DNA from: Acidimicrobiales bacterium
GTDB lineage: Bacteria > Actinomycetota > Acidimicrobiia > Acidimicrobiales > Poriferisodalaceae
DNA: 64,000 nucleotides
Direction of reading: 5' to 3'
Assembly: GCA_041394185.1 (NCBI GenBank)
Contig: JAWKIQ010000004.1
Coordinates: forward strand, 322,075 to 386,074
Positions 35,835 through 62,605 of the stretch are shown here, in pieces; the first letter of the stretch is position 1; each line of letters opens with the position of its first letter. The notes beneath the pieces were generated by a model. It did not search any database, was not told the origin of the DNA, and saw nothing but the letters and a program-made list of their open reading frames with translations. Made by a program: the position numbers and the translations under genes.

Positions 35835-35902
35835 GACGGCGACGGCCGGCTGAGTGCGCCTGCCTGGGTCGGCGACGAGAAGTCACGACTATTGTCCGCC
35901 GG

Positions 35903-41670: not shown

Positions 41671-41760
41671 GCGGGCGACACTATCTTCACGTCGCGGCCC
41701 GATACTGTTCTGCAATCCACTGCACGCACCGGGCGGGGCAGTACGGGATCGTCGAGGACG

Positions 41761-44687: not shown

Positions 44688-44704
44688 GGCTCGCCTTCGG
44701 TTAC

Positions 44705-44731
44705 GATTCCGCTATACGGAATCGTTCCGCA
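44705..44731. promoter_or_regulatory. candidate operator: overlapping palindromes GATTCCG-ctata-CGGAATC-g-TTCCG
   Basis: Perfect 7-bp inverted repeat plus a third half-site, in the 95-nt gap between iclR and the corrinoid-protein gene. Confidence 0.4.
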
Positions 44732-44782
44732 TCGTGGACTCAGCCTTTGCGATGCTGTCCGCCAAGGGGATTGGGGGCCGCG

Positions 44783-45511
44783 ATGAGCGACCACGAAGAC
44801 GTCGACATCGACCTCGCCGGCTTGTCCGACGACGATCTGGCATCACAGATGCACGACGATCTGTACGACGGGCTCGGCGACGAGATCGTCGAGGGCACCA
44901 ACATCTTGCTCGAGCGGGGCTGGAGCGCCGACCGTGTGCTGCAGGAGGCACTGGTCGAGGGGATGCGCATCGTCGGCATCGATTTTCGAGACGGCATCTT
45001 GTTCGTGCCCGAGGTGCTGCTGGCCGCCAACGCCATGAAGGCAGGCATGGCCATCCTGCGACCCCTGCTGGCCGAGACCGGCGCCGAGCCCATAGGCAAG
45101 GCTGTCATCGGAACCGTCAAGGGCGACATCCACGACATCGGCAAGAACCTGGTGGCGATGATGCTGGAAGGTGCCGGGTTCGAGGTCGTCGATCTGGGAA
45201 TCAACTGTGATGTCGACACCTATCTGGCCGCACTCGACGAGCATCGCCCCGACATCTTGGGCATGTCGGCGCTGCTGACCACGACCATGCCCTACATGAA
45301 GGTCGTCATCGACACCCTGATCGAAGCCGGGCGGCGCAACGACCAGATAGTGATGGTGGGCGGTGCGCCGCTGAACGAAGAGTTCGGCGCCGCCGTCGGT
45401 GCCGACGCCTACTGCCGCGACGCAGCCGTTGCCGCAGAGAAGGCCAAGGAGTTGATAGCCGCGCGACGAGCCAACGTGGTCGCGCTCGACACCGCAGGTT
45501 CACGCCCATGA
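44783..45511 (+). CDS. cobalamin-binding corrinoid protein (methyltransferase cognate, MtbC/MtgC-like)
   Basis: GTVKGDIHDIGKNLV (DxHxxG), GMSALLTT and MVGGAP are B12-binding domain motifs. Confidence 0.85.
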   Translation: MSDHEDVDIDLAGLSDDDLASQMHDDLYDGLGDEIVEGTNILLERGWSADRVLQEALVEGMRIVGIDFRDGILFVPEVLLAANAMKAGMAILRPLLAETGAEPIGKAVIGTVKGDIHDIGKNLVAMMLEGAGFEVVDLGINCDVDTYLAALDEHRPDILGMSALLTTTMPYMKVVIDTLIEAGRRNDQIVMVGGAPLNEEFGAAVGADAYCRDAAVAAEKAKELIAARRANVVALDTAGSRP

Positions 45512-47064: not shown

Positions 47065-47945
47065 GGCTCGCCGTGCGGGCACGAGCCCGGTCTTCGGCGC
47101 CCGATCGACACCACCAGGCCGTGGCCGACCTGGTGGCCCGACTGCACTATGAGCTGGTGCCGATGCGATCGATAGAGGCGGCCATCGCAGAGCTGCCTGC
47201 GGGCGCGCCGGTGTCGGTCACCTGCTCACCTGCGGCCGGAATACCAGCGACGCTCGACTATTGCAGCCGCCTGATCGACCTGGGTCACCAGCCCATCCCT
47301 CATCTGGCGGCCCGCACGGTCGCCGACGCCGACGCAGTAGAGCAGACAGCATCGTGGCTGCGTCAACACCAGATTCGAGAGGTGTTCGTCATTGCCGGCG
47401 ACGCCCCAGAACCGGCGGGGCCATACGAGGGCGCGGCCCAGTTCATGGCCGACCTGATCGCTGCCGAACCCGGTGTCGAGCGCATCGGTATCGCCGGCTA
47501 TCCCGACGGGCATCCGGCCATCGACGACCAAGCGCTCGAACAGCAGCTCTTCGCCAAACAGGCGCTGTTGCGCTCGGCTGGGCTCGACGGCTGGATCTCG
47601 ACCCAGATGTGTTTCGACGCCACCCGCGTACGCGCCTGGCTGCAGGGCATTCGGGCCGCGGGCATGACCCTGCCCGTGAGGTTGGGTGTGCCCGGTGTGG
47701 TCGACAGGGCGCGCCTGTTGAAGGTGGGCACCCGCATCGGCATTGGGGCGTCTTTGCGTTATGTCAGCAAGAACCGCTCGACGGTGATGCGCCTGATGTC
47801 GCCCGGCGGTTATGACCCAACCGACCTGGTGGCCGAGTTCGCCGACGACGCCCAGCGCCTGGGTATAGAGGCGCTGCACTCGTTCACGTTCAACTCTGTG
47901 GCCGACACCGCACGGTGGCAGGCGGCCATTGCCGTGGCGGCCTGA
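47061..47945 (+). CDS. methylenetetrahydrofolate reductase-like protein
   Basis: YELVPMRS...VSVTCSP...HLAARTV...FVIAGD...GIAGYPDGHP is an MTHFR-like pattern. The GTG overlaps the MttB stop (GTGA). Confidence 0.7.
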   Translation: MRLAVRARARSSAPDRHHQAVADLVARLHYELVPMRSIEAAIAELPAGAPVSVTCSPAAGIPATLDYCSRLIDLGHQPIPHLAARTVADADAVEQTASWLRQHQIREVFVIAGDAPEPAGPYEGAAQFMADLIAAEPGVERIGIAGYPDGHPAIDDQALEQQLFAKQALLRSAGLDGWISTQMCFDATRVRAWLQGIRAAGMTLPVRLGVPGVVDRARLLKVGTRIGIGASLRYVSKNRSTVMRLMSPGGYDPTDLVAEFADDAQRLGIEALHSFTFNSVADTARWQAAIAVAA

Positions 47946-47966
47946 TCGCTCGCGTCGCGGGGCCGA

Positions 47967-48920
47967 TCAGCCCCGGCGACGCCGGATCTCGGCCGTGATG
48001 GCAGGCACAACGTCGTGCAGGTCGCCGATCACCGCGTAGCCGGCCCTGGTGACCATGTTGGCCTGCGGGTCGGTGTTGACGGCGATGATGTTCTTGCTGG
48101 CAGCTGCACCAACCCAGTGCTGGATGGCGCCAGAGATGCCGCAGGCCAGATAGACGTCGGGCGCGATGCGGGTGCCGGTCTGGCCGACCTGATCGGTGTG
48201 GTTGCGCCAGCCGTTGTTGGTGACCGCCCTAGAGCAGCCCACAACACCTCCGAGCTCGGCTGCCAGTTCCTCGAGCGGCGCAAACGCCTCTTCGCTGCCC
48301 ACACCGCGGCCGCCACCTACGACGACGGGGGCTGTCGCCAGGGTTACGCCCGCGGCCCGTTCGACTCGGCCGCTGACCATGGAACGGCCCAGGTGCGGGT
48401 CGAGGTCGACGGCAAGCTCGACCGGTTCGGCCGCACCGGGCTCGTCTGCGGGTGCCGCGTCGACGCTGTGGTGGGCCACCGTCAACAGCCCGACCTGGGC
48501 GTCGAGCCTTGCGTTCTCCAGCAACGAACCGCCCCAACGCACCCTGGTGATTTCGGCGCCATCGACGGAAGTGACGTTGGCGGCAAAGGGAAGGTCGAGC
48601 CGGGCCGCCGCATGGGCCAACACCTCGTTGCCGCGATCGGTGCCGGTGGCGACCACCACAGCAGGTGATGTGTGGGCTACGGCATGAGCGACCACTGCGC
48701 CCCACGCCTCTGGTCCATAGTCGGTGAGCATGTCGTGGTGGGCCTGCAGCACCCTGGTGACGCCGAAGGCTGCCAGGTGGGTTGCCAACCCGTCGGCGTT
48801 GGCGCCGATGGTGAGGGCCTCGACCGGTTGGCCGAGCGTGCGGGCGAACGTTAGGGCCTCCAGCGCAGCAGGCGACAGTGTGCCGCGGTCGTGTTCGATC
48901 AATACGAGGGTGTGGCTCAC
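47967..48920 (-). CDS. etfA: electron transfer flavoprotein alpha subunit
   Basis: LACGISGAIQHWVGAAASKNIIAVNTDPQANMVTRAGYAVIGDL is the EtfA FAD-binding C-terminus. Confidence 0.9.
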   Translation of the reverse strand: MSHTLVLIEHDRGTLSPAALEALTFARTLGQPVEALTIGANADGLATHLAAFGVTRVLQAHHDMLTDYGPEAWGAVVAHAVAHTSPAVVVATGTDRGNEVLAHAAARLDLPFAANVTSVDGAEITRVRWGGSLLENARLDAQVGLLTVAHHSVDAAPADEPGAAEPVELAVDLDPHLGRSMVSGRVERAAGVTLATAPVVVGGGRGVGSEEAFAPLEELAAELGGVVGCSRAVTNNGWRNHTDQVGQTGTRIAPDVYLACGISGAIQHWVGAAASKNIIAVNTDPQANMVTRAGYAVIGDLHDVVPAITAEIRRRRG

Positions 48921-49684
48921 GACATGACCCCGATCTCTTCGAGCAGGTCGACCACGGCTGCTGCGGCCTCGGGCCCGTGACCGAGGACGACGGTTTGCGA
49001 GGCGCGCTCGGGTGGCCGCACCAGGGTCACCAGCGACAGGCCGCCCGGTTGGGCGCTGGGCTGCATGACCTTGACCTCGGCCTTCTTCGATGCGAGTCGG
49101 CCGCGCATGGTGGGGTAGCGGGGCAGGTTGATGCCCTCCTTGATGCCCACCACTGCGGGCAGCGGCAGGCTGTAGGTCTCGCGACCTGCATCGGCCTCGC
49201 GTTCGACGTGGACGCTGCCGTCGTCGACCGCCAGACCCTTGGCGCCGTTGACCATCGGGCGACCCAGCGCGTGCGCCACCCTGATGCCGACCTGGAAGCC
49301 GCCGCTGTCGGCCGACTCGTTGCCGAACAACACCAGATCGAAGGCGCCGCCTTCGGATTCGAGCTGTTCAATCGCCGCCGCAATGGCGGCTGCCGTGCGC
49401 TGAGGGTCCCATTCGGTGCCGTCGGTGACCAACAGCACGCCGCTGTGCATGCCCACGCTGGCGGCGTAGCGAAGCTGCTCTTCGGCCTCGGCGGGGCCCA
49501 AGGTCAGCACCATCGCCTCGCCACCGTGCTGGTCGATCAGCTGGGCCGCCGCCTCCACCGCACACTCTTCGTGTGGGCTGGTGGTGAAGCCGAGGTTGGT
49601 GGCGTCGACGGCCTGGCCGTCGGCGGTGATGTTGATCTTGGCGCCCGGCGCGGGCACCCGCTTGACGCAGACCAGAACCCTCAC
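48917..49684 (-). CDS. etfB: electron transfer flavoprotein beta subunit
   Basis: (V)RVLVCVKRVPAPGAKI... is an EtfB N-terminus. The GTG at 49684 overlaps the upstream TGA. Only the last 255 codons of the 747-aa track ORF are credible. Confidence 0.88.
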   Translation of the reverse strand: MRVLVCVKRVPAPGAKINITADGQAVDATNLGFTTSPHEECAVEAAAQLIDQHGGEAMVLTLGPAEAEEQLRYAASVGMHSGVLLVTDGTEWDPQRTAAAIAAAIEQLESEGGAFDLVLFGNESADSGGFQVGIRVAHALGRPMVNGAKGLAVDDGSVHVEREADAGRETYSLPLPAVVGIKEGINLPRYPTMRGRLASKKAEVKVMQPSAQPGGLSLVTLVRPPERASQTVVLGHGPEAAAAVVDLLEEIGVMS

Positions 49685-52215
49685 GACTTGAGCCGCGAAT
49701 CGTCGGGGTCGAATGGGCCGTCCTGGCCCACGACCTTCACGGGGAACAGCTCGTTCATGTACATGACCTGCAGGTCGGTGCCTGGCACGGCCAGCTCGCG
49801 GGGCAGATACGCCATGACGATCTGCTTGCCAACCGACGGGCCATAGGTGGCCGAGGTGACGCGCGAGACCCTGCCGTGCGAATCGCGGATTGGCTGTCCG
49901 TCGAGGGTGAGGATCGGTTCGTTGCCGCCCTGAAGCCAGCGGGTGCGGCCCGAAGAGTCGGTTGCGTCCTCGACCGTCAGGCAGCTCATGAGCACCTCGG
50001 GCTCGCCGGCGGCGCGGGCGGCAAGATAGGCCTCCTTGCCGATGAAGTCCGCCGACTTGACCTTGGGCCGGGCCAGACCGGCCTCGAGCGGGTTGTACTC
50101 GCTCTCCAGTTCGGCACCCTGGAGGCGGTAGCCCTTCTCGATGCGGCCCGAGCTGCCATAGACACCGCCGCCGGTGGGGCGCAGGCCGTATTGGTCGCGG
50201 CCGTTGGCCATCAGCGCATCCCAGACCAGGGGGGCCTGATCCCAGGGCAGATAGATCTCCCAGCCGGTGTCGCCCACGTACGAGATACGGAAGAGATAAC
50301 CGTCGACGTCGACATCGCCGCAGCGCAGCGTGCAGTCGACCATGGCTCCGTAGGGCGAGCCGGCGTGGCTGAGGTCTTGGTCGGTCAGGGTGGCCAGCAC
50401 CGCCGGTGCGTTGGGCCCCCACAGGCCGATGGTCGACACCTGGTGGGTGCGGTCGGTGACCGTCACCGAGCCGTCGCGGGGCATGTACGTGCGAATCCAG
50501 TGCATGTCGCGCCCGCCGTCGAACACACCCGTGACGACCCGCACGGTGTCTTCGGCGATGCGCTGCATGGTGAGGTCGGAGTGGAAGCCGCCGTCTGGTG
50601 TCAGCCATGGGGTATAGGTGGCCCGCCCGACCGGGCCGATCTTGTTGACCGCCAGGCGGTCGGCGAACTCGACCGCGCCGGGCCCAGACAGGTCGATGAT
50701 CTGGAACGCCGACAGATCGACCATGCCGCAGTTCTCGCGCATGTTCAGGTGTTCGCCCGCTGTGATGGGGCTCCACCAGCGGTTGTCCCACTCGACCTCG
50801 CGTTCGGTGATGCCGTAGCGCTCGGCCAGGTCGGCGTTGGACCCGTACCACTGGGGGCGCTCCCAGGTGCGGGCCTGGAAGAAGAACGCGTCCAACTCCT
50901 GCTGGCGGCTGTAGAAGGGCGATACCTCGAGGTTGCGCCTGCTGGCCCACTGCTCGGCCGGGTGGACGATGCCGTAGGTCTTGTTGAAGTGTTCCTCTGC
51001 TCGCGCCCAGATGTGATCGTCGCCGCGCTCTTGTGGGTAGAAGCGTGCGATGTCGGCGCCGTGGGCGTCGATGACGCGGGGATAGCCGTAGGTCATCCAC
51101 TCGGCCACCACCTGGGCCATGCCCGGCCCTTCCTTCACCCACACCGCGGCCGCCGACCACAGGTTGGCGACCTCGACGGTTTCGCCCAGGCAGGGCATGG
51201 CGTCTGGGGTCAGCGACAGCAACCCGTTGATGGCGTACTTGATCTCGGCGTCGCCCAGCATGTCCATCAGCTCGATGGCCTGTTCCATCTGGGGGTCGAA
51301 GTCGTCCTGGGTGAACGGCATCTCGGTGGGCGACAGTGCGGCCTCATCGTTGGAGGGGATGGTGTCGGGGTGGTGCAGGATCGGCCGGTGGGCGTACGAC
51401 CCGACCTCCATCGACCCCGCCGACTGGCGCTCGTAGCAGAACGTGTCCATGTCGCGGATGATCGGGTAGCCGATCTCGGAGTTGGTCTCGACCAGCACAT
51501 CGATGGGGCCCACGTCGGCCATCTGGTGAACTGCGGGCACCAGTGGGATGGTGGCGCCTGCCATGTTGGCGACCCGGTTAGACCACACACCAGAGGCGAT
51601 CACCACGTATTCGGCCTCGATGCGGCCCTTGTCGGTGACCACGGCCGACACCTTCTTGCGGCCGGTCGCGGGCTCGTCGACGGTTTCGATGTCGAGAACC
51701 TCGGTGTTGGCGAACACCTGCAAGCCGGCCTTCTCGATGGCCTCGTTGCGGAACAGGGTGCCGGTGTCGAGCGAGTCGACCACGGAAACCGAGGGGCAGT
51801 AGAACCCGCCCAAGATGACTTCCTCGTCGATGAACGGCACCAGCTCCTTGACCTCGGTGGGGGTCAGGAGCTTGGCCTCGACACCCCAGGCGGTGGCGCT
51901 GGTCATGCGGCGCCGAAGCTCGTTCATGCGCTCCTGGGTGCGGGCGACCTCGATGCCGCCGCAGTCGACCGAGCGATCGGCGTCGCGGTACTGGTTGGCC
52001 GACTGCACGCCCAGCAGCGCCATCTCCTTGTTGTGATCGACAGGGAAGATGAAGTTGGATGCGTGGCCGGTGGACCCGCCCGGGTTGGGCAGGGGACCCT
52101 TGTCGAGCAAGACCATGTCGGTCCAGCCCAGGCGGGCCAGGTGACCGGCCAGGCAGTTGCCGACGATGCCGGCGCCGATGATGACGCAGCGCGCCGAGGA
52201 AGGAACTTCGCTCAT
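49681..52215 (-). CDS. FAD-dependent oxidoreductase fused to GcvT aminomethyltransferase domain (dimethylglycine/sarcosine dehydrogenase type)
   Basis: The N-terminus VIIGAGIVGNCLAGHL is a dinucleotide fold. At 844 aa, the C-terminal third is folate-binding GcvT-like. Confidence 0.85.
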   Translation of the reverse strand: MSEVPSSARCVIIGAGIVGNCLAGHLARLGWTDMVLLDKGPLPNPGGSTGHASNFIFPVDHNKEMALLGVQSANQYRDADRSVDCGGIEVARTQERMNELRRRMTSATAWGVEAKLLTPTEVKELVPFIDEEVILGGFYCPSVSVVDSLDTGTLFRNEAIEKAGLQVFANTEVLDIETVDEPATGRKKVSAVVTDKGRIEAEYVVIASGVWSNRVANMAGATIPLVPAVHQMADVGPIDVLVETNSEIGYPIIRDMDTFCYERQSAGSMEVGSYAHRPILHHPDTIPSNDEAALSPTEMPFTQDDFDPQMEQAIELMDMLGDAEIKYAINGLLSLTPDAMPCLGETVEVANLWSAAAVWVKEGPGMAQVVAEWMTYGYPRVIDAHGADIARFYPQERGDDHIWARAEEHFNKTYGIVHPAEQWASRRNLEVSPFYSRQQELDAFFFQARTWERPQWYGSNADLAERYGITEREVEWDNRWWSPITAGEHLNMRENCGMVDLSAFQIIDLSGPGAVEFADRLAVNKIGPVGRATYTPWLTPDGGFHSDLTMQRIAEDTVRVVTGVFDGGRDMHWIRTYMPRDGSVTVTDRTHQVSTIGLWGPNAPAVLATLTDQDLSHAGSPYGAMVDCTLRCGDVDVDGYLFRISYVGDTGWEIYLPWDQAPLVWDALMANGRDQYGLRPTGGGVYGSSGRIEKGYRLQGAELESEYNPLEAGLARPKVKSADFIGKEAYLAARAAGEPEVLMSCLTVEDATDSSGRTRWLQGGNEPILTLDGQPIRDSHGRVSRVTSATYGPSVGKQIVMAYLPRELAVPGTDLQVMYMNELFPVKVVGQDGPFDPDDSRLKS

Positions 52216-52249
52216 TGAGACCCCCGATTGGATGGGTGGTGGCTGATCC

Positions 52250-52272
52250 GTGATATATCATGAAGCTATCAC
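52250..52272. promoter_or_regulatory. candidate GntR operator: GTGATA-tatcatgaagc-TATCAC containing palindrome TGATATATCA
   Basis: Nested perfect inverted repeats lie immediately upstream of the GntR ATG (52273), in the 57-nt divergent gap to the dehydrogenase gene. Confidence 0.45.
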
Positions 52273-52926
52273 ATGACCTCCTTGAGCGAACAGGCCTACG
52301 ACGGAATCCGCCGGATGATCGTCCGCCTCGAGTACGCGCCGGGCGACGTGCTCCGAGACGACACGCTCCAGCAGCAGTTGGGCATCGGCCGCACCCCTGT
52401 GCGCGAAGCCTTGCAGAGGCTGGCCCGCGACCAGTTCGTCACGGTCATTCCACGCCGTGGAATGCTGGTCAGCCGCGTCGACGTCGAAGACCTGTCCCTG
52501 TTGTACGAGACCCGAGCGGTCATGGAGCCCTACGCGGCGAGGCTGGCAGCTCTACGGGGTAAGCCCGAGCACTGGGAAGCCATGCAAGAGCTGATCACCT
52601 CGTCGGCGACGTCGGACGACGACGAGGAACTGCTTGCGGTCGACCGTCGCTGTCACGAGATCACGTGGGCTGCAGCAGGCAATCGGTTCCTCACCGACAG
52701 TCTCGACACTCTCTACGCCCACAGCGACCGCGTCTGGCACCTGTACCTGTCCGACGTCGCCGACACCCGCGAGGCGGTGGAAGAGCACGCCCAGATCCTC
52801 GACGCATTGCGGCGCGGCGACGGCGACGCAGCGGCCGACTTGATCGAGCGCCATGTTCGCAGTTTCGACGATCAGGTGCGTGCTGCTGTGTCGCGCCGCC
52901 TCGACTCGCCGCTGGTCACTCGATAA
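52273..52926 (+). CDS. GntR family (FadR/FCD subfamily) transcriptional regulator
   Basis: LQQQLGIGRTPVREALQRLARDQFV is a GntR-type HTH, followed by a helical FCD-like C-domain. Confidence 0.88.
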   Translation: MTSLSEQAYDGIRRMIVRLEYAPGDVLRDDTLQQQLGIGRTPVREALQRLARDQFVTVIPRRGMLVSRVDVEDLSLLYETRAVMEPYAARLAALRGKPEHWEAMQELITSSATSDDDEELLAVDRRCHEITWAAAGNRFLTDSLDTLYAHSDRVWHLYLSDVADTREAVEEHAQILDALRRGDGDAAADLIERHVRSFDDQVRAAVSRRLDSPLVTR

Positions 52927-53902
52927 TCGGGTTGGCGAGGTGCCAGGCGATAGTCGAGCGCAACCCATCGGCGATCGACGTCACCGGGCACCATTGCAGC
53001 TTCGACATGGCCCTGTCGGTGCGCGGGACGCGCCGGTGTGGCTCGACGAAGCGCCACCCGTGTATCTGCTGTGGGTCGGTTGCAACGACATCGACCGCTG
53101 GCGTACTGGTCAGATCGGCGACCAGCTCTGCGGTCAGAGTGGCCAGATCGGCGATGGTCGTCGGTTCGCGGTTGCCGGCGTTGAACACCTCGCCGACCGC
53201 GGCCGGTTGTGACCCTGCAAGGGCGGTGAGGCGGGCCAGATCGCCAACATGGGTGAACGACCGGACCTGCGAACCATCGCCATAGATGGTCACCGGACCT
53301 CCCGCCAGCGCCTGGTCGACGAAGCGGGCGACCACAGAAGCGCCAGGTCCCCGGTGGGCTCTGGGGCCGTAGCTGTTGAAATAGCGCAAGATCGTGGCAG
53401 GCATCCCTCGGGTGGCCGCGTCGAGAACGAACTGTTCGCCCAGAGCTTTGGCCAGGGCATAGCTCCATCGGGGCGAGGTGGGTGGACCTATGGCCAGGTC
53501 GTCTTCCTCGTCCATCGGTTTGCCGCGCGAGTTGCCGTAGACCTCGCTGCTCGAGGCAAACACGAGGCGAGTCTCGTTGCGGACGCAGGCGTCGACCACG
53601 GCACGTGTGCCGTCGAGAATGATTGCTGCCGCGCCGGTGGGGTCGTTCAGGACGCGCTGCACACCCACCGCAGACGCCAGGTGGAACACGACGTCGGCCC
53701 CTGCGGTGACGTGTGCCACCAGGTCGGCGTCGGCGACCGTACCCTTCGTGAACGTGACGTTGTCGCCATGGTGGGCGAGGTTGTCGAGCGACCCGTTCGA
53801 CAGGTCGTCGACAACGGTCACCGAGTAGCCGGCGGCAACCAGCTCATCGACCACGTGCGAACCGATGTGGCCCGCGCCTCCCGTCACGACGGCCCGCATC
53901 AT
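52916..53902 (-). CDS. NAD-dependent sugar-nucleotide epimerase/dehydratase (SDR)
   Basis: VVTGGAGHIGSH (GxxGxxG), SSSEVYG and YALAKALGE (YxxxK). The ATG overlaps the upstream TGA. Confidence 0.88.
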   Translation of the reverse strand: MMRAVVTGGAGHIGSHVVDELVAAGYSVTVVDDLSNGSLDNLAHHGDNVTFTKGTVADADLVAHVTAGADVVFHLASAVGVQRVLNDPTGAAAIILDGTRAVVDACVRNETRLVFASSSEVYGNSRGKPMDEEDDLAIGPPTSPRWSYALAKALGEQFVLDAATRGMPATILRYFNSYGPRAHRGPGASVVARFVDQALAGGPVTIYGDGSQVRSFTHVGDLARLTALAGSQPAAVGEVFNAGNREPTTIADLATLTAELVADLTSTPAVDVVATDPQQIHGWRFVEPHRRVPRTDRAMSKLQWCPVTSIADGLRSTIAWHLANPIIE

Positions 53903-54861
53903 GGCGACGACTCCGAAGTGACGCGTCGATAGTCCTGGAGCCGAAACCCGAACACCCCACCGACCCATCCGATGGGTGCAACAGCGGTGGCAATGGCCTC
54001 GGCCTGTCGCTCGGCGCGCTGTTGCGGCGACTGCTTGGGGAGCAGTGAGGCGAAGGCGACAGCCACCCCACGAACGAAGCTTCGAGCCTGGCTCGGAAGC
54101 TGAGCCGCGAGGGCTCGGCGGCCCCGGTGGCGACGGGTCCACATCGCCTCGAATCCACCGAACGAGAGGTAGCGCTCGATGAACCACCTGAGCCTCAGCC
54201 TGGCCTGCGGCACCACCTCCCAGGCGATGGCGCGGTCGTTCCACTCGATGTCGTAGCCGGCCATGCGCAGGCGGCGTCCGAGGTCGGCATCGTCGGCGGT
54301 AGCCGTTGCCTGCGACTCGTCGTAGCGCTCGGAGCACTCGTCGAAGATGCTCGAGCGAAAGCAGACGTTGCCTCCGAGGAACGAAGGCATGTCTGTGCCG
54401 GTCGGGTGCCGAGGGATCTGCTGCCAGATGACCCGAGCCCATGCCGGCGCTGTGTCGGGGATCCGCACCAGCACGGGCCCGGTGAGGATCGGAGCCCTCG
54501 ACTCTGCGGCGAGCTTCAGATGAGACTCGAGCCATGACGGCGTGACCACTTGGTCGTCATCGACGCACAGCAGATATTTGGCACACGGGTCGCGTTCGGC
54601 GATGACGGTGTTTCGCGCGAAAGCGACACCGGTGCGACCCTCCTCGACGACTCTGACCGGCCAGCCGCAGCGTCGGCTCAGTTCGGCCGCGTCGAGAGAG
54701 CTGCCGCCCGGCGTGTTGTCGACCACCAACACGTCGACGCTCGGCCGCTCGATCGACCGGAACTTGGAACGACCCACCGAGTCGAGCAGACGCGCCAACT
54801 CGGCTGGGCGCTCGCGTGTGCAAACAGCGAGCGTCAGGTCATTGTGAGGCATCCGGTCCAA
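53899..54861 (-). CDS. family 2 glycosyltransferase (copy a)
   Basis: LAVCTRERPAELARLLDSV...VLVVDN...ARN...CVDDDQVVTPSWLE has the GT2 DxD context. It is a paralogue of 55211-56176. Confidence 0.8.
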   Translation of the reverse strand: MDRMPHNDLTLAVCTRERPAELARLLDSVGRSKFRSIERPSVDVLVVDNTPGGSSLDAAELSRRCGWPVRVVEEGRTGVAFARNTVIAERDPCAKYLLCVDDDQVVTPSWLESHLKLAAESRAPILTGPVLVRIPDTAPAWARVIWQQIPRHPTGTDMPSFLGGNVCFRSSIFDECSERYDESQATATADDADLGRRLRMAGYDIEWNDRAIAWEVVPQARLRLRWFIERYLSFGGFEAMWTRRHRGRRALAAQLPSQARSFVRGVAVAFASLLPKQSPQQRAERQAEAIATAVAPIGWVGGVFGFRLQDYRRVTSESSP

Positions 54862-55154
54862 CCACGCCGAGGCATCCCAAGGCGGCCGGGTGTGAGCAAA
54901 CCGCCGCTCAGGTCGAGAGGGTTGCCAAAGCTGCCTACCTTGCCGAACGAGAAGCCCGACACCTCGCCCTCCAGAGAGTGGGCATCGCCCACGAGCGCCT
55001 CCATGTCGTCGGCGTCGAGGCCATATTCGGTGGCCACGGCGTCGGGCGATTCGATCACCTTCGAGGCGAACTCTTCGTCTTCGAGCAGACGCTTGAACGC
55101 TCGACCCAGTGGTGTGGCGAGGGCCTTTTCCATGTCTTCGTCTTTGGCTGACAT
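54834..55154 (-). CDS. small protein (106 aa) with NHLP/Nif11-like leader-type N-terminus; candidate RiPP precursor
   Basis: ATG follows AGGAG. RAFKRLLEDEEFASKVIESPDAVATEYGLDADDMEAL resembles NHLP/Nif11 leaders. It continues EGEVSGFSFGKVGSFGNPLDLSGG-LLTPGRLGMPRRGWTGCLTMT, and the 3' end overlaps the GT2a start. Confidence 0.6.
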   Translation of the reverse strand: MSAKDEDMEKALATPLGRAFKRLLEDEEFASKVIESPDAVATEYGLDADDMEALVGDAHSLEGEVSGFSFGKVGSFGNPLDLSGGLLTPGRLGMPRRGWTGCLTMT

Positions 55155-55210
55155 CGTGGCTCCTGGTTGTGGTGCGCTGTCATGATCCTGACGGCATCGA
55201 GGAGGCCAAG

Positions 55211-56176
55211 TTACATTCCGGAGTTGTCAGAGGTCACCTTGCGGTACACCTTCGGGCGGGGCAGGCCGACGGCACATGCCAGCCACCCCGAGATCCACGG
55301 CACTCTGTGCTCTGCGGCATACCTGAGTTCGCTATCGCGTCCCAGCACCGCCCGAATCCACACCAGCACGACGCGTCCGAGTTCCTTGAACGTGCTGCGC
55401 ACGAGGTGGCTGCGTTTCGTACCTGCGTCGCGCGCTCGCTCGGCCTGACCGAAACCAACGCGGTAGCCGCGCTGCACCAGCCATCGAAGCGATGCTCGTT
55501 CCTCGCTCAGCCAGTGCCACGTGACGGCACGATCGGCGTGGATCAATCTGGCACCCTGCTCGACCGAGCGTGCCGTCCATTCGATGTCGGAGCCACCGGC
55601 GGTTCCGAACGACTCGTCCAACCAAGTCTCTTGTCGGTCGAGCCAGCTCGTGTTGATCAACAGGTTGCCGGTTGCCGCATGTTCGAGAACGGTGCCGTCG
55701 GCAGGTCGGGCACTGCGAAGTGTGCTCAGGATCGCCCTCGCTCTCGGCGAAGCCCCCGGCGGGATTCGCGGAAGCGATGGGCCAGAGACGAAGTCCGCGT
55801 CGTGCTGTTCCGCCGCGATGATGAGCTGCTCGAGCCACGAAGGCGTGGCGGTCACGTCATCGTCGATGAACACCACCGCGTCGGCCTCGCGGTTTCGGTT
55901 CCGAATGGCGGTATTTCGGGCGAAGGGAATGCCGGTGCGCGACTCGTGCACCACCCTCACGTCGAGCCCGCATAGCGACGACAACTCGTCGGAGTCGTAA
56001 CCCTCGGGCGGGCTTGCGTTGTCGACGATGACCACAGCGGCGATGGCCCGGTCTTCGTCGAGCTGCCTGAACTTGAGCCTGGCGAGCGACTCCAACAGGC
56101 GTCTCAGCTCGGATGGCCGGCTTCTCGTGGCCACAAGGATCGACACCCGCACAGGCGCCGAGTATCGCGCACTCAC
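55211..56176 (-). CDS. family 2 glycosyltransferase (copy b)
   Basis: ILVATRSRPSELRRLLESL...VIVDN...ARN...FIDDDVTATPSWLEQ is co-linear with copy a. Confidence 0.8.
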   Translation of the reverse strand: MSARYSAPVRVSILVATRSRPSELRRLLESLARLKFRQLDEDRAIAAVVIVDNASPPEGYDSDELSSLCGLDVRVVHESRTGIPFARNTAIRNRNREADAVVFIDDDVTATPSWLEQLIIAAEQHDADFVSGPSLPRIPPGASPRARAILSTLRSARPADGTVLEHAATGNLLINTSWLDRQETWLDESFGTAGGSDIEWTARSVEQGARLIHADRAVTWHWLSEERASLRWLVQRGYRVGFGQAERARDAGTKRSHLVRSTFKELGRVVLVWIRAVLGRDSELRYAAEHRVPWISGWLACAVGLPRPKVYRKVTSDNSGM

Positions 56177-56208
56177 TATCTTTGGTCACCGTGCGAGTCG
56201 TAGACCAC

Positions 56209-57051
56209 ATGTCCGCTGCCCTCGGAGTAGTGGCTGAGGGCGCCGACCTGCGTAGTCCTACCCCCGAGATGATCGATCAGTTGAGCGAACTGTTGGATCG
56301 CCACCTCGTCGTCGCAATACGCGGTCAGCGCCTGACCGAGTCCGAACACATGGCGGTCACCTCGGCGCTGGGTACGCCCTGGATACACCCGATCGACCGA
56401 TTGCGAGGCAAGGCCAGTGCCGAACCAGTAACCGTGGAGGCGACCAGCGACGAGCCTCTCGGTACCGACAGTTGGCATGTCGACTTCCCGTACCTTCCTT
56501 CTCCGCCCTCGATCGGCATCCTGAACGCGATCGAGGTGCCCTCCTACGGCGGCGACACCATGTGGCTGAACCTCCAGCTCGCCTACGAAAGGCTTCCGGA
56601 CCGGATTCGCGCAGATCTGGACGGAGTTGGGGTGAACCACTCGATCGGAGAGTTCTTCCTGGATCGCTATGCCGGCGGCGACCCGATGTTGAGGGCGCTC
56701 TGGAAACGAGTGTGTGTCGGAAACACCCACCCGGTCGTCAGAGCCCACCCCCGAACGGGCAAGCCCAGCGTGTACACGCTCGATGCCCAGGCCGAGTTGG
56801 TCGGCTTCGAGGGCTCTGACCCTGCCCGGCTGATGGCCGAGCTGGTCGAACGCTCGACCAGCCTGAATTTCACCTGCCGTTGGCGTTGGCACGAAGGCGA
56901 CGTGGTGTTCTACGACCAGGCGGCGACATTCCACCGACTCATCATCGACCCTTGGCCGGGAGTGCGTCGGATGCGCAGGACACTGGTCGAGGGCCAACCA
57001 CCGACCGCCTACGAACCAGCGATTGCGGTGTCGTCGGCCAAGGCCGAATAG
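56209..57051 (+). CDS. TauD/TfdA-family Fe(II)/2-oxoglutarate dioxygenase
   Basis: DSWHVDFPY (HxD), GGDTMW and WRWHEGDVVFYDQAATFH. It is divergent from the GT2 operon. Confidence 0.8.
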   Translation: MSAALGVVAEGADLRSPTPEMIDQLSELLDRHLVVAIRGQRLTESEHMAVTSALGTPWIHPIDRLRGKASAEPVTVEATSDEPLGTDSWHVDFPYLPSPPSIGILNAIEVPSYGGDTMWLNLQLAYERLPDRIRADLDGVGVNHSIGEFFLDRYAGGDPMLRALWKRVCVGNTHPVVRAHPRTGKPSVYTLDAQAELVGFEGSDPARLMAELVERSTSLNFTCRWRWHEGDVVFYDQAATFHRLIIDPWPGVRRMRRTLVEGQPPTAYEPAIAVSSAKAE

Positions 57052-58829
57052 TCGTCGATGCGCGCTCGCACGACGTCCAGCCCTGCCGACCAGAAGGCCT
57101 CGTCGCGCACGTCGATGCCGAACCGGGCGCCCAATTCGGCGGCGGGGGCCAACCCGGTAGACGACAACAGGTCGTCGTAGGCGCCGCGGAAGGCTTCGGG
57201 ATCGTCCATGAAGCGGGCGTAAAGGCCCAGGCCGAACAGCAGGCCAAACGCGTAGGGCCAGTTGTAGAACACGCTGCCGTAGTAGTGCGGCTTGGCCGCC
57301 CACATCCATCGATGGCGCACGTCTTCGTGCAGGCCCTCGCCATAGGTCGCCTGCTGAGCGTCGGCCATCAGCTCGCACAGCTCGCCAACCGACAAGGTCG
57401 ACTTGCGTCGCCGTTCGAACACCGACGACTCGAACAGGAACCGACTGTGAATGTCGACGATGACCTGGGTGGTGCCGGACAGATCGATGTCCAGCAGTGC
57501 CAGGCGCTGGGCGCCTTCGAGGGCTTCGAGGCCGTGGTGCACCATCAGGGTTTCGCAGAAGATCGACGCGGTCTCGGCCAGCGTCGACGGGGTGCCTCGC
57601 TGGATGGGTGTGCGTTCGCCCAACTGGACGTTGTGGTAGGCGTGGCCCAGCTCGTGTGCCAGGGTCATGACCCCGTCCGCGCTGCCGTCGAAGTTCAACA
57701 ACACCCGGCTGTCGCCGTCGCCCATGGGCATGCAGAACGCCCCGCCCCGCTTGCCGGCGCGAGGTGCGACGTCGATCCACCGCTCGCCGACGGCACGCTC
57801 GGCCAAGCCCCGCAGCGAGGTCGAATACGAGCCGAAGGCGTCGTAGACCCGCTCGACGGCCTCTGACCAGTCCACCGCCGCGGCCTCACCCACGGGGGCG
57901 AACAGGTCGTACCACGGCAGGCCTCCATCGTGGCCGAGCAGCCCCGACTTGGTTCGCAGATATCGGCGGAAGTCGGGGAACGATGCGACCATGGCCGATT
58001 GCAGTGCCGCCAGCGTGTCCTGGTCGACGGCCTGCCCGAACACCTGGGCCGCCAGCACCGAGGGCCATCCCCTTCGCAGCGCCAGCTCCTGCTGTTCGCC
58101 CTTGATGGCGTTGAGCGCGGCCGCGATCGGAATCGAGTGTTGCTCCCAGGCTCCATGCTCGGCCACATAGGCGGCTTGGCGCACTGCGGTGTCGGGGTTG
58201 GTCGCCAGACCCCTGATGGCGAAGATGGGCAGCGACTGCGGCCCGTCGGGCAGGTCGACCACCGCGCGGATCGACGACGACACGTCGCCGTACAGCCGCG
58301 ACCAGGCCGAAGATCCCGTGACCGACATCAGGGCGGCCAGTTCTTCTTCGGCCTCGCTCATCTGGTGTTCGGCGCGAACCAGACCCTTGCGCAAAGGCCA
58401 CTCGTGGGCGGCCGCGGCGTCGCTGGCGGCGATCAGTTCGTCGACGTCTAGGCCCTCGGTCCATGCGTCGAAACGTGTGGTCAGGTTCGACAGGTCGACC
58501 ATCACCCGTTCGAGGCGCGACATCGCCGCCTGGGCCACCGAGTCGGTGCTGTCGGTGCTGACGAATGCGTTCAGATAGGCGCGCATCTGTCCCAGCTGTC
58601 CGAGCACCTCGTTGGTGCCAGCCAGTACCTCGTCGATGGCGGTTGTCGGGTCGTCGGGCACCGATCCGCGCCTGACGTCGTGGCGGTCGTACAGCGCTGC
58701 CAGCCGACCCACCCGAGCCCCGATCTGCTCCTCGGCGTCGGTGTACTCGCGGCTGTCGACACCGGGGAAGTACTTGCTGACATCCCAGCGGGGCGCGTCG
58801 GGTGATGGTGCGTTCTCTGTGACCGTCAT
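57009..58829 (-). CDS. M3-family oligoendopeptidase (PepF-like)
   Basis: LAHELGHAYH (HExxH), at the 606-aa length typical of M3B peptidases. Confidence 0.85.
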   Translation of the reverse strand: MTVTENAPSPDAPRWDVSKYFPGVDSREYTDAEEQIGARVGRLAALYDRHDVRRGSVPDDPTTAIDEVLAGTNEVLGQLGQMRAYLNAFVSTDSTDSVAQAAMSRLERVMVDLSNLTTRFDAWTEGLDVDELIAASDAAAAHEWPLRKGLVRAEHQMSEAEEELAALMSVTGSSAWSRLYGDVSSSIRAVVDLPDGPQSLPIFAIRGLATNPDTAVRQAAYVAEHGAWEQHSIPIAAALNAIKGEQQELALRRGWPSVLAAQVFGQAVDQDTLAALQSAMVASFPDFRRYLRTKSGLLGHDGGLPWYDLFAPVGEAAAVDWSEAVERVYDAFGSYSTSLRGLAERAVGERWIDVAPRAGKRGGAFCMPMGDGDSRVLLNFDGSADGVMTLAHELGHAYHNVQLGERTPIQRGTPSTLAETASIFCETLMVHHGLEALEGAQRLALLDIDLSGTTQVIVDIHSRFLFESSVFERRRKSTLSVGELCELMADAQQATYGEGLHEDVRHRWMWAAKPHYYGSVFYNWPYAFGLLFGLGLYARFMDDPEAFRGAYDDLLSSTGLAPAAELGARFGIDVRDEAFWSAGLDVVRARIDDYSALADDTAIAGS

Positions 58830-58887: not shown

Positions 58888-59871
58888 GTGCAATTCGCCG
58901 TTTTCGATCAGGTCGAACTGGACCGCGATGTGTCGCTGAGCCGGCAGTACCGCGACCGGATGGAATACATCCGAGCGCTCGACGAGGCCGGGTTCTGGTG
59001 TTACTTCAAGAGCGAACATCACGGCATCGGGCTGGACGCAGCCCCCGACTCTGGGACGTTCCTCGCGGCCGCTTCCCAGCACACCGAGCGGATGCGGCTG
59101 GGGTCGCTGGTGTATCTGCTGCCGTTCCACCACCCGCTACGTCTGGCAGAACACATCGCAATGCTCGACAACCTGTGCGACGGGCGCCTCGAGGTGGGCA
59201 TCGGGAAGGGAATCAGCTCGCCCGAGCACGAGCTGTGGGGTCTCGACCCCGACCAGGGGGGTGCCAGGCGAGACGAGGCCTTCGAGGTGTTGGTCAAGGC
59301 TCTGACCAGCGACACGGTCGACCACCACGGTGTTCACTACCGGTTCGACGGCATGCCCGTGACCGTGCGCCCGGTTCAGCAGCCGCATCCACCGTTCTGG
59401 TATCCGGGCAACGTTCGTGCCGCAGCGCAGCGGGGCATGAACACGGTCACGGGCGGCCCGCCTTCACACGTGGCAAGCCAGGTCGAGCTGTACCGGTCGC
59501 TGTGCGACGAGGCGTCGGCAGGTCGGGGTCAGGTGGCCGGCACCTACACGTTTCTGGTGTGCGAGACAGACGACGAAGCGCTGAGCCGGGTGCGTTCGGC
59601 GTGGGCGCGGTTCACCGAGAACCTGACCCCGCTGTTTCGCAGGTGGGGTTTGGCCGTTCCCAACGATCCGACCTGTGGTGGCGATGTCGATGTCGCACTC
59701 CAGCGCAACTCGGTCATCGCCGGTTCGCCCGCAACCGTCGCCCGATTCGTCGAACGCTTCGAGGCCGAGTCGAACGCCGACCTGATGCTGTGCAAGTTCA
59801 CCTGGGGCGACCTGTCGCACGCCGAGGCGATGCGCTCGATGAGCCTTTTCGTCGAAGCCACCCTGGCCTGA
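58888..59871 (+). CDS. LLM-class flavin/F420-dependent oxidoreductase
   Basis: GTG start follows GGGAGGGGG. FAVFDQV...FKSEHH...LDNLCDGRLEVGIGKG is a luciferase-like pattern. Confidence 0.75.
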   Translation: MQFAVFDQVELDRDVSLSRQYRDRMEYIRALDEAGFWCYFKSEHHGIGLDAAPDSGTFLAAASQHTERMRLGSLVYLLPFHHPLRLAEHIAMLDNLCDGRLEVGIGKGISSPEHELWGLDPDQGGARRDEAFEVLVKALTSDTVDHHGVHYRFDGMPVTVRPVQQPHPPFWYPGNVRAAAQRGMNTVTGGPPSHVASQVELYRSLCDEASAGRGQVAGTYTFLVCETDDEALSRVRSAWARFTENLTPLFRRWGLAVPNDPTCGGDVDVALQRNSVIAGSPATVARFVERFEAESNADLMLCKFTWGDLSHAEAMRSMSLFVEATLA

Positions 59872-59875
59872 GCCC

Positions 59876-60910
59876 CTATAGGGGCGCTGGGGACAGACAG
59901 TTCGGTGGGGTGGGGAGACGCACGTCGGCCAGCAACTCGATGGAACGCAGCCTCTCGGCGAGGGTGGGCGACGGGTGCACGGTTATCAGCTCGTCGGCCT
60001 GGGCGCGCTGGGCGAAGTCGGCCAGGTACGAATCGACCTGGCCGGGGTCGCCCGCTGCGGTGAAGTGCATCATGTGTGCGATGTGTTGGCCCTGGGGCGA
60101 GGCCAACACCTGGTCGGCCTCTTCGTCGGTGAGCTCGCGGGGCACGCGCAGGAAGCGGGCCACCCGGCGGCGGCTGACATCCAGGCGCTGGCGCTCGGCA
60201 TCGGCCTGGGTTTCGGCGGCTATCACGTTGACCCCCGCCAAGACATAGGGCTCGGCGAGCTGCTCTGACGGCTCGAAACGGTCTCGGTATAGCGCCACGG
60301 CCTCGAACAGCTGGCCGGGTGCGAAGTGCGACGCGAACCCGTAGGGCAGCCCCAGCTTTGCGGCCAGCTGCGCCCCGAACAGCGACGAGCCCAGTATGTA
60401 CAGCGGAACGTTGGTGCCAGAGCCGGGAACGGCCTGCACCCCCGCCACCTTCGACCGGCCCTGAAGATAGGCCTGCAGCTCGAGCACGTCCTGGGGGAAG
60501 TGGTCTGAGGCGCGAGGATCGACCCGCATGGCCCGCATGGTGACCTGGTCGGTGCCAGGCGCCCGTCCCAGGCCCAGGTCGATGCGGCCCGGATGCAGCT
60601 CGGCCAGGGTTCCGAACTGCTCGGCTATGACCAGCGGAGAATGGTTGGGCAGCATCACCCCACCCGAACCAAGCGTGATGGTCGAGGTCCGCGAGGCCAC
60701 ATGGGCGATCAGCACGCTGGTGGCCGACGAAGCGATCGCCGACATGTTGTGGTGCTCGGCGTACCAGATTCGCCGGTATCCGCGCCGTTCGGCCAGCTGG
60801 GCAACCTCGACACAGTTGGCAAGGGCCTGCGCCACCGAGTCGTCGCGGTTGACGATGGCCAGGTCGAGTATCGACAGTGCGACGGGCTTGTCTTGGTGCG
60901 GGTCAGCCAT
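59876..60910 (-). CDS. LLM-class luciferase-family oxidoreductase (group 1, YhbW-like)
   Basis: LSILDLAIV...[12 protein letters not shown]...[23 protein letters not shown]...[12 protein letters not shown]. Confidence 0.8.
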
Positions 60911-60952
60911 GCCAACAGCATGCCACCGCGGCGTGCGTGACAGACTTTCCTG

Positions 60953-62605
60953 ATGCCCGAAGACGATGTTGAGACATCCCCAGCGACCACAAACCACGAG
61001 GCGGCCACGCACGATGTGGTGGTCATCGGTGCCGGGGTGTCCGGCATCTATCAGATCAAGCGCCTCGTCGACATGGGGCTCGATGCCGTGGTGCTCGAAG
61101 CCGAAGCCGATCTGGGCGGCACCTGGTATCGCAATCGGTACCCGGGGTGCAGGTTCGACTCCGAGAGCTACACCTATGGCTACTCGTTCTCTCAGGAGTT
61201 GCTCGACGAGTGGCACTGGAAGGAGCGGTTCTCGCCCCAGCCCGAGAACTTGCGCTATCTCAACTATGTCGCCGACAAGTTCGACCTGCGCAAACACATG
61301 CGCTTCGGCGTGCGCATCGCATCCATGAAGTGGGACGAACAGCGGCGCGTCTGGCATCTCACCGACACCGAAGGGTCGGTCACCTCGGCCCGGTTCGTGG
61401 TGGCCAGCCTGGGCCCACTGTCGATACCGACCATGCCCGACTATCCGGGCCTCGACCGGTTCGAGGGGCAGGCGTTCCACACCTTTCACTGGCCCGAGGA
61501 ACCCGTCGAGTTGGCGGGCCGTCGAGTCGGCGTCATCGGTACCGGTGCAACGGGCATCCAGGTTATTGCCGAGATCGCAGACAAGGTCGGCGAGCTGAAG
61601 GTGTTCCAGCGGCGCCCCAACTGGAGCTCGCCGCTGAACAACGGACCGATCTCAGACGACGAGATGTCGCAGATACGGGCCCGCTACGACGAGATCTTCG
61701 CCAACTGCGCAGCCTCGCCGGGTGGGTTCGAGCATGTGCCCAGATGGGGCTTCTGGGATGCCACCGCCGAAGAGCGCCGGGCGTTGTGGGACCAGCTCTA
61801 TGCCGAGCCTGGCTTCGCGATTCTCGCTGCCAACTATGGCGAGATCTACTTCGACGAGGCCGCCAACGCCGAGCTGTCGGCCTACATCGCCGACCGCATT
61901 CGTGGCCGGGTCGACGACCCCGCCCTGGCCGAGAAGCTCATCCCCAGAGACCACGGTTTCGGGTTGCAGCGCCTGCCCCTCGAAACCCACTATTTCGAGG
62001 CTTACAACCGGCCCAACGTGCACCTGGTCGATCTCCAGGAGACACCGATCCAACACTTCACCGAGGGTGGCATCCAGACCAGCGACCAGCACCACGACCT
62101 CGATGTCATCGTGTTCGCAACCGGATTCGACGCCATCACCGGCGGCTACGACCGCATGGACATCGAAGGCGCCAACGGGGTTCGGTTGAGCGATCGGTGG
62201 AGCGACAGCCCACGCACCTTGCTTGGGGTGATGACACACGGGTTCCCCAACCTGATGATGGTCGCCGGCCCGCAGAGCGTGTCGGGTTCGACCAACTTCC
62301 CGCGGGCCATCGAAAAGGGTGTCGAGTTCGTCACCGGGCTGATCGAAACGACCCTCGACAACGGCAACACGCGCGTCGAGGCCCGCCTCGAGGCCGAGGA
62401 TGCCTGGGTCAAAGAGGTCGTACGCGCCCACGAGAGGTTGCTGATTCGCAACAGCAAGGGCTGGTTCACCGGATACAACTCGAACGTGGCCGGTCACGCC
62501 GAGGGGCAGGTGCGATATCAGGCATACTTCGGCGGCGCGCCTCGATACGTCGCCCGTGTCGAGGCCGTGGTCGACGGTGGCTACCGCGAGTTCGAGTTCG
62601 ACTAG
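60953..62605 (+). CDS. Baeyer-Villiger-type flavin monooxygenase
   Basis: [10 protein letters not shown], the BVMO fingerprint [12 protein letters not shown] (FxGxxxHxxxWP), and a second fold VIGTGATG. Confidence 0.88.

Follow-up and report, generated by a model that had tools for sequence, protein, structure and literature searches.

Precursors of the NHLP and Nif11 types (TIGR03793 and TIGR03798; Haft et al. 2010), like those of TIGR04509 and NF038399, comprise a helical leader of ~70-85 residues akin to nitrile hydratase alpha chains, a pair of glycines close to where leader and core meet and a short, variable core, and one leader family is combined with varied tailoring enzymes in different clusters. 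Here we report a locus that shares these features in a 64,000-nucleotide stretch of an uncultured Acidimicrobiales bacterium (assembly GCA_041394185.1, contig JAWKIQ010000004.1, positions 322,075 to 386,074 of the forward strand), referred to below as the window. In this locus a small open reading frame (ORF) encodes a 106-residue peptide with an NHLP-clan leader, and genes for two family 2 glycosyltransferases (GT2a and GT2b) lie on either side of it, together with a gene for a sugar-nucleotide enzyme of the short-chain dehydrogenase/reductase (SDR) type. We propose, at a probability of roughly 0.6, that this compact cassette produces a leader-guided, glycosylated member of the peptides that are synthesized ribosomally and modified post-translationally (RiPPs) belonging to a previously undescribed family, and that the product is not a glycocin. 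The tailoring enzymes here are two GT2s, and not a cyclodehydratase, LanM or radical S-adenosylmethionine (SAM) enzyme as in other clusters with leaders of this kind. NHLP-type precursors are normally processed by peptidase-containing ATP-binding cassette (ABC) exporters (PCATs), and no PCAT lies near the cassette in the surveyed 35.6-64 kb of the window.

Among proteins studied by experiment, the nearest relative of the leader domain is Os1348 of Pseudomonas sp. Os17 (structure 6LK7), the prototype of NF038399, an 85-residue helical, antibiotic-related and precursor-like protein annotated both as a nitrile hydratase alpha chain and as a Frankia_peptide (PMC7726476). It resembles the window peptide weakly, the score against the family model being 23.7 bits. 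The Os1348 cluster, located beside an efflux pump, has genes for a GNAT acetyltransferase, a gluzincin peptidase and an HEXXH protein but, unlike the cassette, none for a glycosyltransferase (PMC7726476). The graspetide-type precursors of Frankia_peptide (PF14407), a family defined from ATP-grasp-linked clusters (PMC8939145), share the leader domain at the level of the clan; unlike those clusters, none of the GT2-linked loci contains an ATP-grasp ligase.

The mechanism that we propose, in which a GT2 attaches sugar to a Ser, Thr or Cys of the core, is that of the glycocins (sublancin, glycocin F, thurandacin and pallidocin) with their SunS/GccA/ThuS-type enzymes, and the tail of the window peptide has Ser, Thr and Cys. 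In glycocin precursors a short double-glycine leader precedes a helix-loop-helix core that contains nested disulfides, and the clusters include a PCAT and thiol-disulfide oxidoreductases (PMC9576775, PMC12457901). The cassette, in contrast, has an NHLP-type leader of ~85 residues, a core that is not disulfide-rich, two GT2s of ~320 residues and a sugar-nucleotide enzyme of its own, and neither a PCAT nor thiol-disulfide oxidoreductases of the glycocin type were found at any cassette locus. It thus fails every glycocin-defining feature that could be tested. The mycofactocin enzyme MftF (TIGR03965) offers another parallel as a GT2 that glycosylates the product of a ribosomal peptide C-terminus, but the cassette has no equivalents of MftB, C, D or E and its C-terminal residues are variable. 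GT2 genes are also reported, from bioinformatics, to be frequent in the Nif11-type prochlorosin clusters of Synechococcus, where a lanthionine synthetase is class-defining (PMC10783134). This was the nearest mention found in the open-access literature, in which, in agreement with the sequence-only reading that had drawn attention to the locus, we found no described family combining an NHLP-clan leader with GT2s as the only tailoring enzymes.

A precursor-type peptide with an NHLP-clan leader

The 106-residue product has the character of a precursor, with a folded leader of ~68 residues and, beyond it, a flexible linker, a motif that is conserved and a core of 13 residues (Table 1). Compared with its 98%-identical counterpart at locus L003, the small ORF shows 13 synonymous and 2 nonsynonymous differences, the G+C content of its third codon positions is of the coding type and matches that of the neighboring genes, and the AGGAG ribosome-binding site noted earlier was confirmed by direct reading 7 nt ahead of the ATG. 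Together these features indicate that the small ORF is a genuine gene under purifying selection. The gene product is very rare: six relatives were recovered when 5.8 billion protein clusters were searched by word index, and 36, nearly all of 81-128 residues, when 1.84 billion representatives were searched exhaustively with a profile. A scan of species-representative genomes with the peptide found it in one Acidimicrobiales genome only, and a first metagenome scan using peptide patterns gave no matches; alignments A2 and A3 proved too divergent to serve as a source of such patterns. Three longer proteins, P0024 (1054 residues), P0035 (478 residues) and P0041 (1389 residues), match parts of the peptide profile in 4-6 repeated stretches and could be repeat proteins or fusions with leader-like modules.

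The sequence-only reading had taken the N-terminal part of the peptide for an NHLP/Nif11 leader. Membership of the NHLP clan is supported by clan-level profile hidden Markov models (HMMs) and by matches to nitrile hydratase alpha chains, but TIGR03793 and TIGR03798 themselves were not matched at E <= 1. The NCBIfam scan of the window peptide at this threshold returned only NF038399 (Os1348 family NHLP clan protein), at a score of 23.7 bits (E 3.8e-5) that is under the cut-off of 40. The Pfam match to PF14407 (E 0.003) is sub-threshold as well. Across the 38 family members scanned, NF038399 was matched by 29 (best E 4.6e-10), PF14407 by 20 and TIGR04509 by 7. When the family profile was searched against PDB sequences, nearly all matches were nitrile hydratase alpha chains, which made up seven of the top eight, the second being the 85-residue Os1348 structure 6LK7, and LigA-type domains, an NHLP-leader chimera and the borosin precursor SonA followed at lower ranks. 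Because the matches of the window peptide are sub-threshold and the family-level matches are firm, membership is assigned at the level of the clan only and to no single curated family. In ECOD, Frankia_peptide, Nif11 and NHase_alpha are placed in one homology group (PMC12353581).

AlphaFold2 confidently predicts a helical bundle with helices up to residue 65 and a predicted local distance difference test (pLDDT) score averaging 90-94 in ten-residue blocks across residues 11-60, and gives low confidence to the C-terminal remainder (block means 46-64), which is predicted to be disordered. A Foldseek search with the peptide model retrieved nothing significant, the top match being SonA at E 2.4, and did not recover 6LK7. 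An alignment of 38 representatives (A2) has the expected pattern of a conserved leader, residues 1-68, and a variable core, the tail differing greatly both in length and in sequence over its final 8-35 residues.

The leader family is not confined to GT2-linked loci. P0034, a distant member (tblastn E 3.5e-9 to the window leader) with a Cys-rich tail, is encoded in another Acidimicrobiales genome in a classical RiPP cluster comprising an ABC transporter, a GAF protein, an S8 peptidase, the precursor, a DUF455 protein and a radical SAM enzyme, without a GT2. A cluster of this type, with an FHA-ABC transporter and a distant family member whose tail is CGDNGCCSWESKLC, occupies L017:5007-13199 in the Acidimicrobiales metagenome-assembled genome (MAG) GCA_034522155.1 and looks like a separate uncharacterized RiPP system sharing the leader family. 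Since the family is paired with differing tailoring sets (the GT2s, the radical-SAM/S8/ABC set and the Os1348 cluster), the leader is modular, like those of NHLP and Nif11 precursors.

The peptide contains the Gly84-Gly85 pair and, after it, the tail LLTPGRLGMPRRGWTGCLTMT with four Thr and one Cys, as had been claimed. The motif has the consensus GG(L/M)x(T/S)PxxLG with Gly85 invariant, and recurs as GGLxTPxxLG across the 38 representatives; in NHLP and Nif11 precursors proper the Gly-Gly ends the leader, whereas here it continues into the conserved LxTPxxLG. Members of the GT2-linked clade (26 peptides, alignment A8) have 10-20 residues after the GGLxTPxxLG motif. Most of these 26 tails, as judged by eye from the alignment, end in hydrophobic-(Ser/Thr)-x-x, which a Cys precedes in about half of the relatives, and about half read GCLTC(T/V/I). 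The last residues vary (T, I, V, M, S, Q, H). Core cysteines in the cassette peptides number from 0 to 4, the window core having one. The obvious candidate acceptors in the window peptide would be Thr104 (position -3, the conserved Ser/Thr) and Cys102 (position -5, frequently Cys). The C-terminal hydrophobic-(S/T)-x-(hydrophobic/T) pattern (window positions 54837-54848, and A8) also resembles a class I PDZ-domain ligand ([S/T]-x-hydrophobic), and might thus mark the peptide for recognition by a protease or partner with a PDZ domain, instead of or besides being a glycosylation site.

Conserved linkage to the GT2 pair and the SDR enzyme

All fetched loci were surveyed by tblastn with the window proteins and with the peptide HMM. 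A GT2a- or GT2b-type gene flanks the peptide at every informative locus (L001, L003-L012, L015, L016 and L019), at peptide identities of 40-60% except for the near-identical L003-L005 (98%). The synteny that had been suggested as a check is therefore present: peptide and GT2 stay adjacent in about ten divergent lineages, although their flanks are unrelated and the order of the genes is sometimes altered. GT2b orthologs (51-60% identity) adjoin the peptide in L001, L006, L009 and L016, GT2a orthologs adjoin it in L001, L003, L006, L008, L009, L011, L012, L015 and L019, and the SDR epimerase co-occurs, in varying orientation, in L001, L003, L008, L009, L012 and L015, in keeping with the earlier suggestion that the system has a sugar-nucleotide gene of its own.

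The most similar locus, L003 (95-98% identity), comprises genes for a TauD-type dioxygenase, GT2b, the peptide, GT2a and the epimerase. The same five-gene arrangement is found in L009 (57-76% identity for L009 and L010) within wholly different flanks, which include ribosome-recycling and EF-Ts genes on one side, while the 3-kb contig L010 stops at the peptide. L001, from an Acidimicrobiales genome, has GT2b, peptide and GT2a with the epimerase on the opposite strand and no TauD, and the short contigs L006, L008, L011 and L019 are compatible with the same order. L016 has GT2b, the peptide and an unassigned protein of 479 residues. L012 and L015 are rearranged, the peptide gene or genes being convergent with the epimerase, GT2a and, instead of GT2b, an unassigned protein of 433 residues. 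Two precursor genes lie in tandem in L012 (370-684 and 814-1125, both on the plus strand) with the tails GWTGCLICV and GWTTAISLV. The 433-residue protein (L015:2651-3952, plus strand) shows 71% identity when L012 and L015 are compared, begins with a region that has the P-loop-like motif GMSKAGST, and returned no Pfam or PDB match. The idea that it might be a sulfotransferase was rejected for lack of support from Pfam or PDB. At L009 the public annotation gives a 330-residue minus-strand ORF without a Pfam match at 9290-10282, and tblastn places an epimerase ortholog (57% identity, 322 residues) on the plus strand at 9320-10285. The public call is likely a wrong-strand gene call in high-G+C DNA.

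The linkage is also specific. Only 14 relatives of GT2a were found in the 5.8 billion clusters, and identity falls sharply from 48% to 37%, at which point the match is a GT2b-type protein. Scanning metagenomes with patterns of GT2a recovered a single true ortholog (L019, 55% identity), which has the peptide, while the peptide is absent from all 79 generic GT2 loci (full-length matches at <= 33% identity) in the same scan. The peptide is thus linked tightly and specifically to the GT2 pair and the SDR enzyme. The cassette is rare and has been seen so far only in metagenomic assemblies, and the four contigs that could be placed are all from Acidimicrobiales MAGs.

Enzymes and surroundings of the cassette

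The ORFs and the operon structure described from the sequence alone were all found (Table 1). The overlap of GT2a with the 3' end of the small ORF measures 19-28 nt, depending on the GT2a start; the identical NCBI protein P0042, annotated as coming from an Acidimicrobiales MAG, has 317 residues and would fit an ATG at 54852. The GT2a stop and the epimerase start form the sequence ATGA, ~32 bp separates the divergent starts of GT2b and TauD, and the M3 peptidase gene converges on TauD with 43 nt shared between their 3' ends. The window has a G+C content of ~66%, and promoter, terminator and Rfam scans over the cassette region were all empty.

GT2a and GT2b are co-linear paralogs (35% identity over 317 residues, E 1e-44), as had been noted. 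Both match PF00535 above the cut-off, the DDD motif and other acidic residues are invariant between them (alignment A6), and they have in common a distinctive C-terminal GW..G..G.R...YR.VT motif. In the AlphaFold2 model of GT2a (mean pLDDT 91.6), three long C-terminal helices come after a GT-A core, and a Foldseek search of the model against PDB gave many GT-A matches of similar strength (E 1e-12 to 1e-10), the top 50 including AvpGT, TarS, TarP, PcManGT, chondroitin polymerase (K4CP), GalNAc-transferases and hyaluronan synthase. The SunS/GccA type expected by the sequence-only reading was not borne out, with no glycocin glycosyltransferase returned by phmmer against PDB (E <= 0.01), by the A6 profile (E <= 1) or among the Foldseek top 50. 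The best NCBIfam match of GT2b is MftF (TIGR03965; E 3.6e-14, 52.5 bits against a cut-off of 280 bits), and weak NCBIfam matches to the exopolysaccharide glycosyltransferases EpsD and HpsE were also seen. No transmembrane helix is predicted in either GT2 (highest 19-residue Kyte-Doolittle averages 1.43 and 0.93), and a membrane-embedded polysaccharide synthase was rejected on these grounds.

The solved structures closest to the SDR enzyme are 6wjb/6wj9 (E 2e-43), which we take to be the PelX UDP-GlcNAc 4-epimerase, followed by human UDP-glucuronate decarboxylase, GalE and RmlB. The dioxygenase is closest to TauD, AtsK, Rv3406 and aryloxyalkanoate dioxygenases. Its divergent placement recurs in L003 (95% identity) and, at 58% identity, in L009/L010, although the flanks are unrelated, and it is absent from L001 and L016. 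The proposal that it belongs to the system and may hydroxylate the peptide thus holds in so far as it accompanies the cassette in two of the four lineages with the upstream side visible, but it is accessory and resembles small-molecule enzymes of the TauD, AtsK and Rv3406 type. The M3 peptidase, put forward as a candidate leader peptidase, does not belong to the cassette, because tblastn with the M3 protein found nothing in any related locus.

The left flank of the cassette (43935-52926) is probably a methylated-amine or betaine catabolism block unrelated to it. The GntR regulator at the border of this block was considered as a cassette member and rejected, since it is found in none of the related loci, and the GH38, luciferase-like and Baeyer-Villiger-type neighbors are likewise not linked to the cassette in related loci. 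A gene of the Na+/Ca2+ exchanger family lies ~12 kb from the cassette in the window (41212-42702, plus strand), and another lies ~2 kb downstream of the peptide in L016 (6113-7045, plus strand), with one gene between. L016 also has a 984-residue RTX calcium-binding repeat protein upstream, and this exchanger/RTX pattern may be a coincidence.

Table 1. Features of the cassette and its surroundings (window coordinates unless a locus is given)
Feature	Position	Strand	Details
GT2b, GT-A/GT2 glycosyltransferase	56176-55211	-	321 aa, GTG start; PF00535 E 1.8e-13
Precursor-type small ORF	55154-54834	-	106 aa, ATG start; stop codon 54834-54836
Helical NHLP-clan leader domain	54951-55154	-	Residues 1-68
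Variable linker	54906-54950	-	Residues 69-83
Conserved motif GGLLTPGRLG	54876-54905	-	Residues 84-93
Putative core MPRRGWTGCLTMT	54837-54875	-	Residues 94-106 (13 residues)
GT2a, GT-A/GT2 glycosyltransferase	54861-53899	-	317-320 aa, TTG start; PF00535, PF13632, PF13641
SDR-type NDP-sugar epimerase/dehydratase/decarboxylase	53902-52916	-	328 aa; PF01370 E 1e-53
TauD/TfdA-family Fe(II)/2-oxoglutarate dioxygenase	56209-57051	+	ATG 56209 probable; PF02668 E 3.5e-37
M3 peptidase	58829-57009	-	PF01432 and TIGR02290
GH38 alpha-mannosidase	35660-38977	+
IclR regulator	within 43935-52926		Left flank
MttB-like methyltransferase	45508-47064		Left flank
MTHFR-like gene	47061-47945		Left flank
Electron-transfer flavoprotein alpha and beta subunits	47967-49750		Left flank
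Dimethylglycine-dehydrogenase-like gene	49681-52215		Left flank; 844 aa
GntR/FCD regulator	52273-52926		Borders amine-catabolism genes
Luciferase-like monooxygenase	58900-59871	+	Pfam-confirmed
Second ORF resembling luciferase-like monooxygenase	59876-61489	-	By eye only
Baeyer-Villiger-type flavin monooxygenase	60953-62605	+	By eye from sequence
Further feature of the rearranged sub-clade	L012:3016-3657	-

Proposed glycosylation and rival explanations

Starting from the observed gene content, family relationships, leader/core pattern and conserved, specific linkage, we infer that the peptide is the acceptor of the GT2s, and with it the modified residue, the sugar, the division of labor between the two enzymes, cleavage at Gly-Gly, export and bioactivity. 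We predict that the NHLP-clan leader would recruit the two soluble DxD GT2 paralogs, possibly via their C-terminal helical extension and GW...YR.VT motif, and that the GT2s would move sugars from nucleoside diphosphate (NDP)-sugars onto Ser, Thr or Cys of the core, the pair acting on two sites or stepwise to give a disaccharide. The translationally coupled SDR enzyme may make a special donor sugar, such as a 4-epimer or a pentose, and the TauD-type dioxygenase, where present, could contribute an optional oxidation. Leader removal and export would be handled by genes outside the cassette, without involvement of the adjoining M3 peptidase. In its fullest form, which we hold tentatively and at somewhat less than even odds, this amounts to a new RiPP family in which an NHLP-clan leader is served by two deeply divergent GT2s as the only class-defining tailoring enzymes. 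These would place a mono- or disaccharide of a cluster-made sugar on hydrophobic-(Ser/Thr)-x-x, possibly also on the neighboring Cys, and sub-clades would swap one GT2 (for the 433-residue protein of L012 and L015) or add TauD oxidation. From the glycosylated RiPP system suggested by the sequence-only reading, the precursor-like NHLP-clan peptide and its linkage to the GT2s and the SDR enzyme are retained, while the kinship with SunS/GccA and the membership of the M3 peptidase fall away.

Several observations weigh against a glycosylated RiPP. The connection between the GT2s and the peptide is drawn from sequence and gene linkage, every NHLP-clan HMM match of the window peptide falls under its curated cut-off, and the GT2s have no detectable SunS-type kinship and are just as similar to GT-A enzymes for teichoic acid, polyprenyl phosphate and polysaccharide. 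Within the GT2-linked clade the tail shows fair conservation (GCLTCT in about half), which would fit a structural or signal role as well. No PCAT or ABC transporter was found in the cassette, in the surveyed window region from 35.6 to 64 kb, or in L001 or L009, and no leader peptidase was found in the cassette, nor any peptidase apart from M3 in the same 35.6-64 kb. Finally, L014 contains a GT2a ortholog (10001-10945, plus strand, 70% identity, on a 790-kb contig) without the peptide, GT2b or the epimerase within 10 kb, and is the only counter-example to the linkage.

A first rival is that the small protein serves the GT2s as adaptor, regulator or chaperone subunit, and that the GT2s use the SDR-made sugar to glycosylate another acceptor, such as an envelope glycolipid, polymer or metabolite. 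Three-helix domains of the LigA/NHLP type do occur outside substrates, in LigA, in nitrile hydratase alpha chains and in the regulatory subunit TglI (PMC12353581), and Os1348 crystallizes as a stable dimer (PMC7726476). The teichoic-acid, polyprenyl-phosphate and polysaccharide enzymes among the GT2 fold matches, the lack of a peptidase and an exporter in the cassette, and the GT2a ortholog of L014 without a peptide all speak for such a role. We nevertheless consider it unlikely, as the C-terminal third of the peptide is predicted to be disordered and is variable across the family, which is expected of a core and not of an interface, and it has a conserved Ser/Thr close to the C-terminus. The same leader family also occurs as the precursor of the radical-SAM/S8/ABC cluster, and the tandem peptide genes of L012, with their differing tails, are typical of RiPP precursors.

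A product resembling mycofactocin, in which C-terminal residues are excised to a small intracellular cofactor or signal and then glycosylated by the GT2s, would explain the missing exporter, and both the standing of MftF as the best NCBIfam match of GT2b and the position of the conserved core part at the extreme C-terminus are consistent with it. The MftF score of 52 bits is, however, far under the 280-bit cut-off, no radical SAM enzyme, RiPP recognition element (RRE) partner, peptidase or flavoenzyme is linked to the cassette at any locus, and the last residues vary in a way unlike a fixed cofactor precursor, so that we attach little probability to this explanation. Even less can be said for an incidental layout, in which the GT2 pair and the epimerase would constitute an ordinary cell-wall or exopolysaccharide locus and the small ORF an unrelated neighbor or no gene at all. 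The weak EpsD and HpsE matches and the source annotations ("glycosyltransferase involved in cell wall biosynthesis") point in that direction, but the ORF is under purifying selection and is kept at 40-60% identity, its linkage survives unrelated flanks and rearrangement in about ten lineages, the 79 generic GT2 loci have no peptide, and neither the cassette nor its flanks contain a flippase, polymerase or priming transferase. An incidental layout is very improbable and is essentially excluded by the comparative data.

To our knowledge, glycosylated ribosomal peptides are few, and almost all of those characterized are Firmicutes glycocins made by SunS-type enzymes. If the proposal of a leader-guided glycosylated RiPP is correct, the cassette would represent leader-guided peptide glycosylation on a different, NHLP-clan leader, by a different pair of glycosyltransferases with its own sugar-nucleotide supply, and from a barely explored source lineage, the uncultured Acidimicrobiia. 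It would also provide new enzymes for peptide glyco-engineering in a compact four- or five-gene system that lends itself to easy heterologous testing, and would assign a definite role to one branch of the Os1348/Frankia_peptide leader clan, which is poorly understood.

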